From a virus (taxonomy: Duplodnaviria > Heunggongvirae > Uroviricota > Caudoviricetes), in the IMG/VR virus record IMGVR_UViG_2541047726_000008: 20,558 nt of DNA. One strand, 5' to 3'. Made by a program: the position numbers and the translations under genes. The notes beneath the pieces are model-generated. The model worked only from the letters and a program-made list of their open reading frames with translations. It ran no database searches and was not told where the DNA came from. The first letter of the stretch is position 1. Every line of letters starts with the position of its first letter. Shown piece after piece: positions 4,375 through 16,562 of this stretch.

Positions 4375-4932
4375 TCAACAATGAATTTTTAGCAATTGCT
4401 CCACAGTCATATTTTTAATTGCGCTCCGGTTTACAAGAGTCCATCCTTGTTTCTCCAGATAAAACCGGAAGGTATCCAGGGTGCAGACCATTGCGCCGTC
4501 AGGAACGGTTTCAGTGAATTTGATATTGCCGTGTTCGTCGAGACGGATAACCAGGGTGCGTCCGTCCCCGTGAATCATTTTGTCGGGAGACGGGGCGTTA
4601 TTCTGGCGCAGTTCTTCCTCCATGCGATCGAACTCAGCGATGTAGGCTTCTTTGAAAGTTGCGGCTTTTTTACCTGTGAACCCCATCACCAGGAAAACGA
4701 AGCCGTTTTTGGTGATTTGGTACATTGGGAGTTTGCGCCCGGTTGAGTCGGTGTATTCGCTCGACACAAAATTGTGCTCAGTGAATTTTGCTGAACAGTC
4801 CAGATTGCGAATTTTATCCAACACTCGTTCGTGGCGTTTGCCAAAGAACTCGGCGATCGCAACAGACGTAGTGACAGCGCGACCATTTTCGATGGTTACG
4901 TCAGGGTGAGAAAGGGTAAGGATAGTAGCCAT
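4375..4932 (-). CDS. Rha-family phage regulatory protein (antirepressor-like)
   Basis: Track gives a 284-aa ORF from 5229, but residues 1-99 are low complexity. Internal ATG at 4932 is preceded by GGAGG and opens with MATILTLSHPDVTIENGRAVTTSVAIAEFFGKRHERVLDKIRNL, as Rha-domain proteins do (from memory). Re-called as 185 aa. Confidence 0.65.
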   Translation of the reverse strand: MATILTLSHPDVTIENGRAVTTSVAIAEFFGKRHERVLDKIRNLDCSAKFTEHNFVSSEYTDSTGRKLPMYQITKNGFVFLVMGFTGKKAATFKEAYIAEFDRMEEELRQNNAPSPDKMIHGDGRTLVIRLDEHGNIKFTETVPDGAMVCTLDTFRFYLEKQGWTLVNRSAIKNMTVEQLLKIHC

Positions 4933-5101
4933 GATGGCAGCCTCCGCGATGAATTTGATTAACTCACCACCGAGGTTTTCCACGACCATAAGGGTGGTGA
5001 GACGTACAGGGGTGGAAATACCGGTCATCACGGAACCCGGCCAGCCTTGCGGCTGCCCTGCACGCCCCACCATAATGCGAATGTGGCTGTGCTTAACGCA
5101 T

Positions 5102-5124
5102 AAAAAAACCGCCTGAGCGCGGTT
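5102..5124 (-). terminator. Possible weak intrinsic terminator (minus strand)
   Basis: On the minus strand reads AACCGC-GCTCAG-GCGGTT followed by 7 T. Stem is short (4 GC + 2 AT pairs). Lies upstream of the re-called Rha start, supporting the shorter gene model. Confidence 0.3.
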
Positions 5125-5804
5125 ATGCGCCGTGAATGATTTCGGGTTTCCACGCCCGGCACCCGTTTTATGAGGTGCAGGTGCACTATAATTCCACCCG
5201 TTCTGGTTTTCAATAGCTACATTCAACATTTTCTCTTACCTTTCATCACCGAAGTGAACTTTGTTGATGCGGTGCCTGGTGCCTCCAGGTGACGTTAACC
5301 AGTTAACAATTAACGCCGGATACAGAGAATCCACCCATAACACTGTTTTTGGTTTTAACTGTTCCGCGTGCGCTCAGCCGCATTCACCGCATCACAAAAT
5401 TCACTTTAAAAAGGGCGGCAGAGCAGTCACGGAGTAAAACTGATACCGCCAAAAGTCACCAGAAAATTGATAACAGAGGGCGTTGCAGCGGGGTTGTCAC
5501 TTAAGCGTATGGTCAACCTGACAACCCGGTGTCCTCAACGGGGGAAGGAATAACCCCGCCATACTTACCGCCGCGCCATTTCGCGGATTGCCACAACCGG
5601 AAGCGCACGGTCGACGAAAATTTAACGACAGGCTATCTATGAACCAGCTACCTCGCCGTGCGCTTTCGCGTTATGGTCTGACTTTTCAGGGAAATATCCT
5701 TTCAGTAAACTGTCAGTGCCGGATTCTTATCCGTGTCCGGCGCACGACCACACGCTGTCACGAGAGGTCTCCATTCTCAACCAGTAACCTCAATGGAGGA
5801 TAAA

Positions 5805-6744: not shown

Positions 6745-7206
6745 CTACTGGTTACGTTTCTTTAGTGCCAGCATGTTCTCGAAGGCTTCCTCGTAGAGCT
6801 TGTTTAGTCCACGTAGCTGGTTAAGGAGTTTGGCTTTTTCTGACGCAGGTAGAATCTCGAAGAGGTTAAGTAACTCTGCCTGTTCTTCATTGACCAGCCT
6901 CCATCCTTTGCCTGAAAAGTTATCATCATAAGTATCTGATGATCTTACATAATTCATTAAGTCTTTAAGGTCTTCTCGAATGTCCTCTGGTTTTACCTTT
7001 AACAGAGCCGCAAATTTTAGCGCAGCGTCGGTATTTACCGGTATCTTGCCGTTCAGATACTGGCTAACGGTGCCTTGAGATTCGAATCCCAACAACTCAG
7101 CCGCCAGCTCTTGAGTCAGCTTCAGCTCTTTTTTTCTTGCATTCCATGCGGCTTTTAAATTCTTGCTCGCTTCTGGAGTTGCAATCACTTCGCGTGTTTT
7201 TTTCAT
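6745..7206 (-). CDS. CI-like prophage repressor (XRE-family HTH, no S24 peptidase domain)
   Basis: 153 aa. HTH at residues about 30-50 (LTQELAAELLGFESQGTVSQYLNG). C-terminal about 70 aa has no Ser/Lys autocleavage motif pattern. Divergent from the cro-like gene. No SD before the ATG; predicted promoter places the TSS at or next to the ATG. Confidence 0.8.
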   Translation of the reverse strand: MKKTREVIATPEASKNLKAAWNARKKELKLTQELAAELLGFESQGTVSQYLNGKIPVNTDAALKFAALLKVKPEDIREDLKDLMNYVRSSDTYDDNFSGKGWRLVNEEQAELLNLFEILPASEKAKLLNQLRGLNKLYEEAFENMLALKKRNQ

Positions 7207-7212
7207 ACATAG

Positions 7213-7240
7213 AGTTTATTTGTTTTACCAATATTATCAA
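7213..7240 (-). promoter_or_regulatory. pRM-like promoter for the repressor (leaderless transcript predicted)
   Basis: Minus strand: TTGATA (7240..7235), 16-nt spacer, TAAACT (7218..7213), then 6 nt to the ATG at 7206. Overlaps the palindrome TATCAAAGATA and an AATATT operator-like core. Confidence 0.45.
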
Positions 7241-7254
7241 AGATAGTCTGGCTA

Positions 7255-7283
7255 TTGATCTTTAAAATTAGCGGGGCTAATAT
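7255..7283 (+). promoter_or_regulatory. pR-like promoter for cro-like gene
   Basis: TTGATC (7255-7260), 17-nt spacer, TAATAT (7278-7283). The -10 overlaps an operator-like motif (AAATATTAG on the minus strand, 7277-7285). Confidence 0.55.
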
Positions 7284-7313
7284 TTGCTCGAGGCATAACG
7301 TAGAAGGTTGGCT

Positions 7314-7589
7314 ATGAACTTAAGAGACTATTTAAAAGAGAAACATATTACCCAGCTACAGTTTGGGAAGCTAACGGGTTTATCTCAGGTGCATGTAAGT
7401 CGAGTGCTGGGGGGCTATGAAAGATTCAGCCCTGAAAAAGCATTACGTGTTGCTGAAGTAACGAATTTCGAGGTTACACCTCATGAACTCCGGCCTGATA
7501 TTTACCCGAATCCAACCGACGGCTTACCTGTTGGATTCAAGGCTAACACACCAAATGCATCGGAGTTGATTCATGAAAATCAGGCATGA
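7314..7589 (+). CDS. Cro-like (YdaS-like) HTH DNA-binding protein
   Basis: Track start is TTG at 7308; ATG at 7314 has GAAGG upstream. 91 aa, N-terminal HTH (ITQLQFGKLTGLSQVHVSRVL). Position divergent from the repressor. Confidence 0.7.
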   Translation: MNLRDYLKEKHITQLQFGKLTGLSQVHVSRVLGGYERFSPEKALRVAEVTNFEVTPHELRPDIYPNPTDGLPVGFKANTPNASELIHENQA

Positions 7590-7998
7590 GCACATCCGCA
7601 TGGCGATGAATGCCTGGGCGCATCCGGACGGTGAAAAAGTTCCGGCAGCTGAAATAACCCGGGCTTATTTTGAGCTTGGTATGACGTTCCCGGAATTATA
7701 TGACGACAGCCATCCGGAAGCCCTGGCTCGCAATACCCAGAAAATTTTCCGCTGGGTGGAGAAAGACACTCCTGATGCGGTTAAAAAAATTCAGGCGTTG
7801 TTACCAGCGATCGAAAAAGCAATGCCGCCTCTGCTGGTGGCCCGAATGCGCAGCCACAGTTCAGCTTATTTTCGGGAGCTGGTGGAGACGCGGGAACGAC
7901 TGGTGAGAGACGCTGATGATTTTGTCGCAGTGGCGATCGCTGGTTTCAACCAGATGAATCGCGGTGGCCCTGCAGGAAATATTGTGGCTGTGCATTGA
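7573..7998 (+). CDS. CII/YdaT-like regulatory protein
   Basis: 141 aa, ATG at 7573 with GGAG 7 nt upstream, 17-nt overlap with the cro-like gene. Starts MKIRHEHI…, similar from memory to Rac YdaT / CII-family proteins that follow Cro-like genes. Confidence 0.55.
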   Translation: MKIRHEHIRMAMNAWAHPDGEKVPAAEITRAYFELGMTFPELYDDSHPEALARNTQKIFRWVEKDTPDAVKKIQALLPAIEKAMPPLLVARMRSHSSAYFRELVETRERLVRDADDFVAVAIAGFNQMNRGGPAGNIVAVH

Positions 7999-13999: not shown

Positions 14000-14039
14000 T
14001 GCAGCGGGTGCTTGAGGCTATCTGTCTCAGGCATGAACA

Positions 14040-14130
14040 CCAAAAGGCAGATAGAGAAAAGCCCCAGTTAACATTACGCGTCCGGCAAGACGCTTAACAT
14101 TAATCTGAGGCCATATCTATGCTCTACACA
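14040..14130 (-). ncRNA. Putative Sok-like antisense RNA (approximate)
   Basis: Inferred from hok-family architecture. Candidate minus-strand promoter TTGCCT (14162..14157), 17 nt, TAACCT (14139..14134) would drive an antisense RNA across the upstream-ORF initiation region. The -10 is weak and the ends are not defined. Confidence 0.3.
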
Positions 14131-14175
14131 CGTAGGTTAGCCTCTTACGTGCCGAAAGGCAAGGAGAAGCAGGCT

Positions 14176-14331
14176 ATGAAGCAGCAAAAGGCGATGCTAA
14201 TCGCCCTGATCGTCATCTGTTTAACCGTCATTGTGACGGCACTGGTAACGAGGAAAGACCTCTGCGAGGTACGAATCCGAACCGGCCAGACGGAGGTCGC
14301 TGTCTTCACAGCTTACGAACCTGAGGAGTAA
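14176..14331 (+). CDS. hok: Hok/Gef-family type I toxin
   Basis: 51 aa, MKQQKAMLIALIVICLTVIVTALVTRKDLCEVRIRTGQTEVAVFTAYEPEE, matching the Hok pattern (…CLT…TRK.LCE.R…G..EVAAF.AYE). AAGGAG 9 nt upstream. An in-frame upstream ATG at 14119 with its own SD extends the frame by 19 codons (mok-like leader ORF). Confidence 0.8.
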   Translation: MKQQKAMLIALIVICLTVIVTALVTRKDLCEVRIRTGQTEVAVFTAYEPEE

Positions 14332-14400
14332 GAGACCCGGCGGGGGAGTAATCTCCCGCCACCTCTGATGTGCCAGGCATCCTCAACGCACCCGCACTTA

Positions 14401-14420
14401 ACCCGCTTCGGCGGGTTTTT
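14401..14420 (+). terminator. Intrinsic terminator of hok-like mRNA
   Basis: ACCCGC-TTCG-GCGGG followed by TTTTT. The identical 20-mer recurs at 16236-16255. Confidence 0.7.
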
Positions 14421-14432
14421 GCATTAGTCTGG

Positions 14433-14461
14433 TTGACAAAAATAGAAAAATGCGAAAATAT
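14433..14461 (+). promoter_or_regulatory. Possible promoter of the cargo cassette
   Basis: Perfect TTGACA at 14433-14438; the -10 candidate 17 nt downstream (AAATAT, 14456-14461) is only a partial match. Confidence 0.3.
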
Positions 14462-14496
14462 GTGGTTTACGAATTCTAAAAAAAGCGAAACTTGAA

Positions 14497-15147
14497 ATGA
14501 ATGAAAATCAGTTAGCTCCTTGTTGGGAATTTCAACCTTATCTTGCTGAAAACTATGTTCGCCACTTGTTGGCGGAGATCGCTAACGTACTTGAGCAGCT
14601 GTACTATCATAAGCACGCATTAGACAGCAACTGGTCTGAAGGTGTAAGGGCTTATGATTGGGTCAGAAATCATCTTATTCAAAATGAAGATGCAATTCCT
14701 GGCCTTGAGATGATTTCCAAGGGGTTGGACTATGTAGTTGCTTTAAATAAAGTTCCGCTACAATTTACCAAAGATTGCATTAATAACCCCAAAAAGAAAC
14801 ATCGTCTGCGTCGAAATAAAGTAGAGTATGAGCAGCTCTCATTGTTTGGTGATGTTGAGGCTGAGCAAGATATTACATGGCGAGTCATAGCTGAGCCTTT
14901 TTTATCCGAAGAGGGCGATGGTGAATTAGAGTCCACACTGCCTCGTTGGGAGGTAGCTCTTGTTGGATTTAATACTTATGGTGCTCAGATTAGTATAGTT
15001 TCTCATCAATCTACAGCATCGATGCCGCTTATGCCTCTTGATTATAACACACTCCCTGACGAAGCGGAGATTAATAAGGTGCCTCTTCGTCGGCGTACGA
15101 AGGATAAAGATTTGGATGTGAGCAGTGATGGAACATCAGGTGAATAA
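14497..15147 (+). CDS. Hypothetical protein (216 aa), first gene of the cargo cassette
   Basis: ATG at 14497 without a clear SD. Visibly AT-rich coding sequence (about one third GC by eye in the first 60 nt). No motif recognised. Its last 20 nt overlap the next gene. Confidence 0.6.
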   Translation: MNENQLAPCWEFQPYLAENYVRHLLAEIANVLEQLYYHKHALDSNWSEGVRAYDWVRNHLIQNEDAIPGLEMISKGLDYVVALNKVPLQFTKDCINNPKKKHRLRRNKVEYEQLSLFGDVEAEQDITWRVIAEPFLSEEGDGELESTLPRWEVALVGFNTYGAQISIVSHQSTASMPLMPLDYNTLPDEAEINKVPLRRRTKDKDLDVSSDGTSGE

Positions 15148-16231
15148 CTTCACTGAGTATCGGGGTGATAAGCTCAAACTAGCGAGAATGGCTGTTGGGC
15201 TTTCTTGTGAAGAGTTAGCCGAAAAAATTGGCAAGACAAAGCAATTCGTTAGCAAACTGGAGAAGGGGTGCAGGCCATCGGAGCAATGTCTTGAGTTAAT
15301 ATCTTCAGCGCTTATGATTAAGTCCAGTTTTCTTTTTACTGAACGAAAATACGCTCTGGAAAGTGATGTCTGCCATTTTCGGAGTAAGAAGTCCAGGACT
15401 CAAACGCTGACTAATAGTGTATTGGCCAGGGCTGAGATTCTTAATATTATAATTTCTGCTGTTGAAGGTGAAATCGAATTTCCTGACGTTAACATACCGG
15501 AGCACCCAGGGGCTGAATTACTTACTCCGAATGATATTGAGCGAGTGGCAGAAGATTGTCGCCGTGCCTGGAATTTAGGTCTTGGCCCTATATCATCAAT
15601 GGTTAAATTGGCGGAGAGTTTAGGGGTAATCGTTGCGCATGTTACGGGAGTCGATGATCGTGTTGATGCTTTTACTGTTCACAATAACAGGCCTGTTATC
15701 ATCAGGAACAATGTTAAAAAAAGCATATGTAGATTTCGCTCTGATTTAGGTCATGAATTAGGGCATTTAGTAATGCATGAGGGCATAACGACAGGTGATA
15801 AACTTACGGAATCACAAGCCGATCACTTTTCGAGCGCCTTATTAGTTCCCAGGTTATCTTTCATTAAAGAATTTCCACGAATACGAGGTAAGCAATTCGA
15901 CTGGAATGCTCTGGTTGAATTTAAACTTAGATGGAAAATCAGCCTTAAAATGTGTATTTATCGAGCCAGCGCATTAGGCTTATTGACCCAGGAACAGGCA
16001 AGAACTGGCTATATGCATCTTAATTCCAGAGGGTATACGAGAGTTGAACCTGGTGATGAACTTTTGCGCCCTGAAGAACCCGGCATGCTGGCCGAGGCGA
16101 TTGAAATGCTGGATGATGCAACCTGGCTAAGAATTCTTATGAAAACTGGCTTGAGCCAAGATTTAATTCGTGAGTTGTTCTCCATCAACAGACCTATTAC
16201 AAATCCAAGAAATATTTTCCAGATTGTTTGA
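15128..16231 (+). CDS. Fused XRE-family HTH / ImmA(IrrE)-type zinc metallopeptidase
   Basis: Track start is GTG 15125; ATG at 15128. 367 aa. N-terminal HTH (LKLARMAVGLSCEELAEKIGKTKQFVSKLEKG) and central HEXXH motif in an ImmA/IrrE-like context (…FRSDLGHELGHLVMHEG…). Confidence 0.8.
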   Translation: MEHQVNNFTEYRGDKLKLARMAVGLSCEELAEKIGKTKQFVSKLEKGCRPSEQCLELISSALMIKSSFLFTERKYALESDVCHFRSKKSRTQTLTNSVLARAEILNIIISAVEGEIEFPDVNIPEHPGAELLTPNDIERVAEDCRRAWNLGLGPISSMVKLAESLGVIVAHVTGVDDRVDAFTVHNNRPVIIRNNVKKSICRFRSDLGHELGHLVMHEGITTGDKLTESQADHFSSALLVPRLSFIKEFPRIRGKQFDWNALVEFKLRWKISLKMCIYRASALGLLTQEQARTGYMHLNSRGYTRVEPGDELLRPEEPGMLAEAIEMLDDATWLRILMKTGLSQDLIRELFSINRPITNPRNIFQIV

Positions 16232-16235
16232 GTAT

Positions 16236-16256
16236 ACCCGCTTCGGCGGGTTTTTT
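16236..16256 (+). terminator. Intrinsic terminator (second copy of the hok-terminator hairpin)
   Basis: ACCCGC-TTCG-GCGGG plus T6. The 20-mer 16236-16255 is identical to 14401-14420. Confidence 0.7.
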
Positions 16257-16340
16257 GTTTTTATTTTCAACGTGTTTGAAGTTTTGGACGGTGCCAGAAT
16301 AGAATCAAAAATACTTAAGTAGCGCGCAGGGAGAAGAGGG

Positions 16341-16562
16341 ATGGACCCCGAACAGGGGGAGTGCTATTTATCTGGAAGGATTCTGTTGATGAAAATCGAA
16401 GAATTACGTGAAATTTTTAGTGAAGATGGCCTCTATGCTGTGCGCGTTGAGAATGGGGGTATTACCTACACAGCGTTAATTCCTGATGATCATGTAGTGT
16501 TATCTGTTGAGGCATTCATTGAATACTTGGAAAGACTCGGTTTCAAGGTAGTTCGGGAATAA
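16341..16562 (+). CDS. Hypothetical protein (73 aa; alternative start 16389)
   Basis: ATG at 16341 with AGGGAG upstream; an internal ATG at 16389 (MKIEELREIF…) also has GGAAGGA upstream. No motif recognised. Confidence 0.45.
   Translation: MDPEQGECYLSGRILLMKIEELREIFSEDGLYAVRVENGGITYTALIPDDHVVLSVEAFIEYLERLGFKVVRE

Follow-up and report, generated by a model that had tools for sequence, protein, structure and literature searches.

The segment at positions 14421-16255 (+ strand) of the analysed DNA, a 20,558-nucleotide stretch from a lambdoid prophage of E. coli at the ompW site (hereafter the window), very probably represents a self-contained RosmerTA-type toxin-antitoxin (TA)/anti-phage cassette carried as a moron (rough probability 0.82). 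It comprises a promoter, rmrT (gene 1), rmrA (gene 2) and a terminator, and lies between two exact copies of the 20-mer ACCCGCTTCGGCGGGTTTTT. RosmerTA systems consist of a zinc peptidase antitoxin and a toxin; they are defensive in E. coli, and an rmrA deletion was found to be untransformable (Millman preprint; Millman et al. 2022). RmrA proteins pair with diverse RmrTs, and a second RosmerTA system has been validated (PMC10440598). An HTH-M78 fusion with an HEXXH motif, an adjacent same-strand RmrT match and co-conservation of the two genes, which mark membership in RosmerTA, were all found at this locus. An earlier note on this DNA had suggested that the two genes form a TA-like pair acting in abortive infection or defence, and this suggestion gains computational support from the RosmerTA profiles, the co-conservation, an empty site and alternative cassettes at the same position.

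The putative antitoxin/regulator gene rmrA (15128..16231, + strand; 367 aa, WP_000401168.1) can be read from 15125 or 15128 (368 or 367 aa), and RefSeq/PGAP uses the ATG at 15128, so that genes 1 and 2 overlap by 20 nt. A PADLOC check of the pair, as the earlier note had advised, matched both products, with RmrA recognised by profile PDLC03943 at an E-value of 6.2e-105 (profile positions 2-342 of 370). The same protein matched the capP and capH profiles at 1.6e-14 and 1.5e-4, respectively, so that the RmrA match exceeds that to capP by about 90 orders of magnitude, and it was also assigned to PHROG 2439 (E 7.6e-123). It had been described as a fusion of an XRE-type HTH and an ImmA/IrrE-type peptidase, and this architecture was borne out by an N-terminal Xre HTH (Pfam HTH_3, residues 16-62, E 5e-7; about nt 15164-15343) and a Peptidase_M78 (ImmA-IrrE zinc-peptidase) domain (residues 176-281, E 6.5e-11; about nt 15653-15970) containing the HELGH motif at residues 209-213 (codons 15752-15766). 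The C-terminal region comprises about 85 aa. In NCBIfam, gene 2 gave a sub-threshold match to the spr1629 antitoxin and nothing else, and a profile search of RmrA against PDB sequences matched HTH domains only. In RefSeq, the products of gene 1 and gene 2 are at present labelled 'hypothetical protein' and 'helix-turn-helix domain-containing protein'.

The upstream gene rmrT (14497..15147, + strand; 216 aa, WP_001004956.1) encodes the putative toxin/effector. The view that this protein fits no family did not hold, since it is placed both in the PADLOC RmrT profile PDLC03929 (E 4.6e-25; residues 7-209 aligned to profile positions 5-195 of 198) and in PHROG 5786. All members of the wider gene 1 family (64 of 64) match PDLC03929. 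The module is therefore a catalogued, already known system and not a new candidate or a new kind of system. The RmrT of the window is predicted to be soluble and acidic (pI 4.9), with no transmembrane or hydrophobic segment. Searches of gene 1 against Pfam and NCBIfam returned no matches, the RmrT family profile had no match among PDB sequences, and hhalign comparisons of the RmrT family with the RmrT of Tritos and the verified RmrT of E. coli OLC-716 indicated no relationship. A first AF2 model, based on 13 close homologues, was of low quality (pLDDT 62) and its Foldseek search against the PDB uninformative; structure comparison of RmrT revealed neither a confident fold relative nor a recognisable enzymatic fold. 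Among the superfamilies considered for RmrT were the PD-(D/E)XK nucleases, whose alpha/beta core resembles that of restriction endonucleases and bears D...(D/E)xK catalytic residues on strands 2 and 3.

The two overlapping genes, both on the + strand, are the only ones inside the hairpin pair, with no small HTH gene adjacent to them. The 20-mer ACCCGCTTCGGCGGGTTTTT had been recognised as a duplication bracketing the genes, and the window indeed holds exactly two copies of it (14401-14420 and 16236-16255, both + strand); none of 100 shuffled sequences gave a match, even with up to three mismatches tolerated. Both copies have terminator-like scores and fold into a GC hairpin ahead of a U-run (-15.1 and -10.9 kcal/mol), in agreement with their reading as intrinsic terminators. 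The left hairpin terminates the hok transcript and is found in empty-site phages as well, while the right hairpin is the cassette's own terminator, at which homology to these phages restarts. Directly upstream lies the hok/sok type I TA locus (14006..14331, + strand), whose 3' terminator forms the left boundary of the cassette. The presence of this neighbour was confirmed by an Rfam match to sok (RF01794, 14006-14181, E 2.5e-27, 117 bits) and a Pfam HOK_GEF match in the ORF 14119..14331, which is annotated as hokD in E. coli 042. The cassette had also been described as AT-richer than its surroundings; the GC content of 14421-16235 is 0.415 compared to the window mean of 0.483, and the cassette has the lowest GC content in the window, with no lower value among the sampled 1815-bp stretches.

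The proposal that the cassette is a moron that entered a prophage hotspot at a terminator is supported by comparison with other phages. Phage mEp460 carries the empty site with a single hairpin copy, and comparison of the junctions defines a 1835-bp insertion consisting of the cassette and one copy of the hairpin. In other phages, this terminator is followed by a different RosmerTA cassette or by a Fic/Doc cassette, again closed by a copy of the hairpin. At least four cassettes without relation to one another, namely three variants of RosmerTA and one Fic/Doc module, begin directly behind the hok terminator. Another phage contig has at this site a typical member of both RosmerTA profiles (5.5e-93 and 2e-155). 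The identical end hairpins mark the joint where recombination linked the cassette to the phage backbone. Morons, a concept attributed to Hendrix and Juhala, are promoter-gene-terminator insertions in lambdoid phages. Like them, the cassette is an autonomous transcription unit with a promoter and terminator of its own, departs in GC content from its surroundings and is found in some phages but not in others that are otherwise collinear. It shows no essential difference from them; the detail added here is that its terminator is a copy of the one upstream, behind hok, and that this boundary is used by several unrelated cassettes.

The promoter/operator region (14431..14470, + strand) was recognised from its sequence and from a layout that recurs upstream of rmrT homologues. 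It contains a -35 element TTGACA (14433-14438) and a weak -10 element AAATAT (14456-14461) separated by a 17-nt spacer. Of the claim that the cassette has its own promoter, the TTGACA -35 element stood, as it is present, with a promoter geometry also seen in homologous cassettes elsewhere; the -10 element is weak, and a consensus promoter scan of the window did not call the cassette promoter. The repeat GGTTGAC (14431-14437) spans into the -35 element and is followed 33 nt downstream by GGTTTAC (14464-14470). This promoter/operator layout is kept in six loci, with two repeats spaced 31-34 nt apart upstream of the rmrT homologues of Tritos, L040, Serratia (L004), Xenorhabdus (L003) and the loci L132/L133. 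The GTTGAC/GTTTAC repeats are a candidate RmrA operator pair.

Both genes occur in an identical set of 237 among 5,426 complete E. coli genomes. Gene order and overlap are kept in prophages of Xenorhabdus and Serratia, where the Serratia pair lies between Q and the holin gene, and also in relatives with 23-27% identity, where the pair has unrelated neighbours. The genomic-neighbourhood comparison suggested by the earlier note hence revealed co-conservation of the pair from E. coli to distant relatives. The only damaged copies found were two, one with an IS5 insertion and one with an internal deletion; both disruptions strike gene 1 and spare gene 2, which is unchanged, as would fit a toxin and its antitoxin. 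The copy with the deletion in gene 1 retained the promoter region.

Family membership and the logic of type II TA systems suggest that a sigma-70 promoter (TTGACA-N17-AAATAT) produces a bicistronic, translationally coupled mRNA and that RmrA neutralises RmrT, and the Xre HTH of RmrA probably represses the operon by binding to the GTTGAC/GTTTAC repeats flanking the -10 element. Infection by another phage would remove or inactivate RmrA; host shut-off combined with turnover of RmrA could bring this about, as could a trigger that targets its M78 peptidase domain. Free RmrT may then arrest or kill the cell before the cycle of the invader is completed, to the benefit of the resident prophage and of the lysogens as a population.

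The verified RosmerTA system of E. coli OLC-716 has a similar organization, with a toxin gene upstream of a gene for an Xre HTH-M78 protein of about 370 aa. Its RmrA is 29% identical to that of the window over about 300 aligned residues including the HEXXH motif, whereas its RmrT belongs to PDLC03935 instead of PDLC03929 and has no detectable sequence relation to the RmrT described here. Gordonia phage Kita also carries a RosmerTA system (Ernits et al. 2023), for which narrow anti-phage activity has been shown (PMC10440598); like the cassette in the window, it is phage-borne and combines an RmrA-type antitoxin with a toxin lacking a family assignment. The RmrT of Kita is membrane-targeted and depolarises the membrane (PMC10440598), in contrast to the soluble, acidic RmrT of the window, and the lack of a hydrophobic segment in the latter suggests that it probably has a different target. 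A prophage TA system that makes clpP essential (Rousset's CRISPRi preprint) was also considered as a match, but its accessions differ from those of the window pair and its phenotype was not transferred to it. In the literature searched, no paper names WP_001004956.1 or WP_000401168.1 or reports an experiment on this RmrT subfamily, and a search combining COG2856, antitoxin and phage returned no mechanistic RosmerTA paper.

ImmR/ImmA of ICEBs1, DdrO/IrrE of Deinococcus and CapH/CapP of CBASS consist of a separate HTH repressor, the cleavage substrate, and a peptidase, which together control a neighbouring operon. The window shares with these switches an M78/COG2856 HEXXH peptidase associated with an Xre-type HTH. 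However, HTH and peptidase form a single protein here, CBASS and ICE genes are absent, and about 7 kb separate it from the nearest stand-alone repressor; a switch of this type was rejected. This repressor (6745..7206) is CI-like and has an HTH_3 domain only and, as the earlier note had stated, no self-cleavage domain, which leaves room for the alternative that the fusion is an ImmA/IrrE-style antirepressor protease cleaving it, with gene 1 as an accessory of induction; ImmA/IrrE peptidases do cleave Xre-type repressors (summarised in PMC10440598). Against this alternative, phage Rac-SA53 encodes a repressor identical at 152 of 153 positions, yet has no cassette between hok and rem, and in the window about 7 kb separate the cassette and the immunity region. 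Homologous pairs also occur outside prophages and, within them, at different positions and alongside different immunity regions; the pair travels independently of immunity regions, and an antirepressor role leaves the strict co-conservation of gene 1 unexplained. We regard this alternative as hardly credible.

Two further readings keep the genes as a functional pair and change their polarity or purpose. In PD-lambda-2 (Vassallo et al. 2022), the Xre-peptidase fusion is toxic and is rescued by the upstream gene (PMC9519451), and domain content therefore cannot guarantee polarity. This system resembles the window in having an Xre-peptidase fusion 3' of a small toxin-like gene on an E. coli mobile element with abortive-infection defence, but it differs in its three components (HigB-like, fusion and P4-antitoxin-like) and reversed toxicity. 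Membership in PD-lambda-2 was rejected, as the window has two genes only, gene 1 is not HigB-like and has no Pfam match, and PD-Lambda-2_B gave no match at E<=1. A reversed polarity, with the HTH-peptidase fusion as the toxic effector and gene 1 as its neutraliser or sensor, would be consistent with the lack of a recognisable enzymatic fold in gene 1. It is very improbable in view of the two natural genomes with a broken gene 1 and an unchanged gene 2, the promoter region retained in the deletion copy, the failure to obtain an rmrA deletion in the verified system (Millman preprint), and the match of gene 2 to RmrA at 6e-105 and not to PD-Lambda-2_B. The pair could also serve addiction or prophage stabilisation like hok/sok, with no meaningful anti-phage activity: the cassette directly adjoins hok/sok, Fic/Doc-type TA cassettes use the same site, and anti-phage activity has been demonstrated for other RmrT subfamilies only. 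We consider this reading unlikely, because both tested RosmerTA systems defended against phages, the matching profiles belong to a defence-system database, and distant relatives of the pair adjoin an OLD/AAA-type gene and not a prophage in need of stabilisation. Moreover, addiction and defence are not mutually exclusive.

For the RosmerTA reading, a broader generalization can be offered tentatively: lambdoid phages may exchange TA/defence cassettes at the hok 3' terminator as a common boundary, a promoter in which two GTTGAC-type repeats bracket the -10 element at a distance of about three helical turns may be common to several RosmerTA subfamilies and contain the RmrA operator, and the PDLC03929 RmrT may have a new fold. 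No earlier description of the hok-terminator boundary or of a common two-repeat RosmerTA promoter was found. If true, the two-repeat operator would provide a handle on RosmerTA switching. The comparisons also show that TA/defence cassettes repeatedly land at the position just behind hok/sok. Naming the pair RosmerTA helps annotation because RefSeq uses generic names for both genes, and the PDLC03929 RmrT subfamily is a candidate choice for mechanistic work on RosmerTA. This RosmerTA variant is present, on lambdoid prophages, in about 4% of the complete E. coli genomes.

The cassette lies in a window that as a whole covers the early part of a lambdoid prophage inserted beside ompW, and E. coli 042 carries a prophage essentially identical to that of the window. 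Two plus-strand genes overlapping by 20 nt, rmrT (gene 1; 14497..15147, 216 aa) and rmrA (gene 2; to 16231 from an ATG at 15128 or a GTG at 15125, 367 or 368 aa), are enclosed by two copies of the 20-mer ACCCGCTTCGGCGGGTTTTT (14401-14420 and 16236-16255), each a GC hairpin with a T-run flagged as terminator-like. This 20-mer has no third site in the window with up to three mismatches tolerated, and 100 shuffles gave 0 matches to it. The GC content between the hairpins is 41.5%, compared to about 48.5% window-wide, and is the lowest among the sampled window stretches of equal length. Thus, the region is organized as the earlier note had described it, with an AT-rich pair of overlapping genes within a duplicated terminator. 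The hok/sok locus is located 5' of the cassette (Rfam sok, 117 bits; Pfam Hok/Gef). On the 3' side, a 73-aa ORF (16341-16562) starts like rem of Rac/mEp460-type phages and then diverges; it is part of the phage backbone outside the cassette, and at this site in E. coli 042 PGAP annotates only a truncated pseudogene.

The gene 2 product combines an Xre-type HTH (HTH_3) with an M78 ImmA/IrrE peptidase domain, in which the HELGH motif occupies residues 209-213. This fusion had been recognized correctly, whereas gene 1, which the note had left without a family, can be placed: it has zero matches in Pfam and NCBIfam, but matches the PADLOC RmrT family PDLC03929 over its full length (E 4.6e-25). Gene 2 belongs to the PADLOC RmrA family PDLC03943 (E 6.2e-105), with far poorer PADLOC matches to capP (1.6e-14) and capH. 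Both families are also present in PHROGs, as phrog_5786 ("unknown function") and phrog_2439. RmrT and RmrA make up RosmerTA, a system protective in E. coli, which consists of a Zn-peptidase antitoxin and a toxin whose function is unknown, and for which an rmrA deletion was unobtainable (Millman et al. 2022). Many unrelated RmrT toxins pair with RmrA, and a second RosmerTA system, from Gordonia phage Kita, has been validated (Ernits et al. 2023, PMC10440598). In the verified system of E. coli OLC-716, RmrT falls in a different family (PDLC03935), and no similarity between it and gene 1 could be detected; the RmrA of this system shares 29% identity with gene 2 over the HTH and peptidase domains. 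The PADLOC matches of both genes and these differences place the window pair, by sequence, in a catalogued RosmerTA subfamily other than the verified OLC-716 one. The earlier proposal of a candidate toxin-antitoxin or defence module is thereby supported. Its novelty is low, as the module is already recognized by standard defence-annotation profiles; the pair's RefSeq proteins WP_001004956.1 and WP_000401168.1 are named in no paper found in the searchable literature.

RmrT is a soluble, acidic protein without a hydrophobic segment, unlike the membrane-depolarising RmrT of Kita (Ernits et al. 2023, PMC10440598). An AlphaFold2 model based on a 64-sequence alignment revealed a confident alpha+beta structure (pLDDT 84, pTM 0.74), for which Foldseek found no PDB relative at E<=0.001. 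The most conserved residues are D43, E110, R129, G49 and P87, and in the model these appear to sit elsewhere than expected for a PD-(D/E)XK site. A "nuclease-like" description of RmrT is only a lead.

Gene 1 and gene 2 are each present in 237 of the 5,426 complete E. coli genomes, mostly with at least 99% identity, and the entire cassette likewise occurs in 237 genomes. Close homologues of gene 1 are found in Enterobacterales only (21 clusters). In the nin region of a Xenorhabdus prophage (L003), an HTH+M78 gene comes next after the gene 1 homologue and overlaps it, and the same order and overlap are seen in Serratia prophages (L004-L006, 5001-6768), where the same RmrT/RmrA subfamily occupies the interval between the Q antiterminator and holin genes. 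The late-regulatory region of the Xenorhabdus prophage is a cluster of toxin-antitoxin modules, with ParE/Phd-like and HicA/HicB pairs (L003, 8449-10355) within 4 kb 3' of the homologous pair. An exhaustive profile search expanded the gene 1 family to 69 representatives of about 200 aa, and all 64 aligned members match the same RmrT profile. Both distant members examined (23-27% identity) have an HTH+M78 gene directly 3'; the neighbours include a DNA polymerase gene in one case, and a resolvase and an AAA/OLD-type gene in the other. The pair is therefore clearly co-conserved.

Damaged cassettes were found in 2 of the 237 E. coli genomes. In FDAARGOS_1249 (L130, 875-1843) gene 1 is broken by an IS5 element, and in PS1Thumoskin9 (L131, 1501-2009) it carries an internal deletion, while the gene 2 protein is unchanged in both. 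None of the 5,426 E. coli genomes has gene 1 while missing at least 80% of gene 2. Damage to gene 1 with gene 2 unchanged is the pattern expected for a toxin and its antidote, and these two cases give an indication that gene 1 may be the partner that is dangerous yet can be lost, with gene 2 as its antidote. The opposite polarity has a precedent in PD-lambda-2, where the Xre-peptidase fusion is the toxic part (PMC9519451), but for the window pair it is argued against by both natural disruptions striking gene 1 (n=2).

The earlier note had also offered gene 2 as an antirepressor protease for the repressor at 6745..7206. The immunity region (6745-7998) is of the Rac/DicA type, with a 153-aa HTH-only repressor divergent from YdaS-/YdaT-like genes; an Ash/Rha-domain protein is encoded nearby (4375..5229, minus strand). 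This repressor is identical at 152 of 153 residues (99%) to that of phage Rac-SA53, yet the hok-rem interval of Rac-SA53 has no cassette, and cassette homologues are found outside prophages as well as alongside different immunity regions. These comparisons make a dedicated antirepressor function unlikely; a RosmerTA module remains the preferred reading.

The cassette has a perfect -35 TTGACA (14433-14438) followed 17 nt on by a -10 AAATAT, and because the latter is weak, a consensus scan of the region reported no promoter. In several RosmerTA subfamilies, a GGTTGAC direct repeat (up to one mismatch per copy, 31-34 nt spacing) lies 5' of rmrT with its copies on either side of the -10. In the window, these copies are GGTTGAC at 14431-14437, which includes the -35, and GGTTTAC at 14464-14470, after the -10-like AAATAT. 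This layout is common to the window, phage Tritos, contig L040, Serratia, Xenorhabdus and the distant loci L132/L133 (L001, ~2948-2986; L003 and L004, 5' of 5001; L132/L133, ~2938-2976), with a weaker version in L134, and the sequence around the repeats shows no conservation from one cassette type to the next. The verified OLC-716 system has no such motif on its 5' side. The repeat pair is a candidate operator for the RmrA HTH, whose binding would give autorepression like that of classical type II toxin-antitoxin operons. The Serratia Q-holin position, a classical late-operon moron site, differs from that in the window, and the cassette therefore moves between prophage positions with its promoter motif.

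In phage mEp460, a single hok terminator is followed directly by the sequence right of the second hairpin of the window, which relative to mEp460 has a 1835-bp insertion comprising the cassette and one hairpin copy. At the same site, Tritos carries a different pair, a 204-aa protein with weak matches to other RmrT profiles and a 381-aa RmrA (PDLC03947, 32% identity to gene 2), in a cassette that starts with ...CTGGTTGACAAAG and ends with ACCCGCCTCGGCGGGTTTTT. A hok-terminator scan of IMG/VR gave at least 120 contigs, and the first 120 were sorted by what follows the terminator; the 124 classified occurrences include the window and the fetched Tritos, mEp460 and E. coli 042 records. Among the matches listed, about 65 of the 124 are empty, with no second hairpin. 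The cassette of the window occurs in 8 (six viral contigs, the window and E. coli 042; 1835 bp from hairpin to hairpin), the Tritos type in 6 (1865 bp), and a Fic/DOC cassette of ~0.84 kb in 9 (~840 bp; Pfam Fic, E 1.6e-11). One contig, L040, has a third RosmerTA cassette (1835 bp), a typical member of the window pair's own PADLOC families (RmrT 5.5e-93, RmrA 2e-155). Every filled cassette among the matches listed ends with a copy of the same hairpin (up to 2 mismatches), and a second backbone type with a different right flank also shows empty and filled states. The polymorphism is seen at loci L001, L040, L087, L115, L056, L024, L126 and L090. The empty and filled states and the shared terminal hairpin therefore bear out the suggested moron insertion at a terminator hotspot, and make it more general than claimed. 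Left homology may be supplied by the conserved hok gene, and on the right side homology would resume at the 20-24-bp hairpin. Cassette content at the hok terminator is polymorphic among lambdoid phages.
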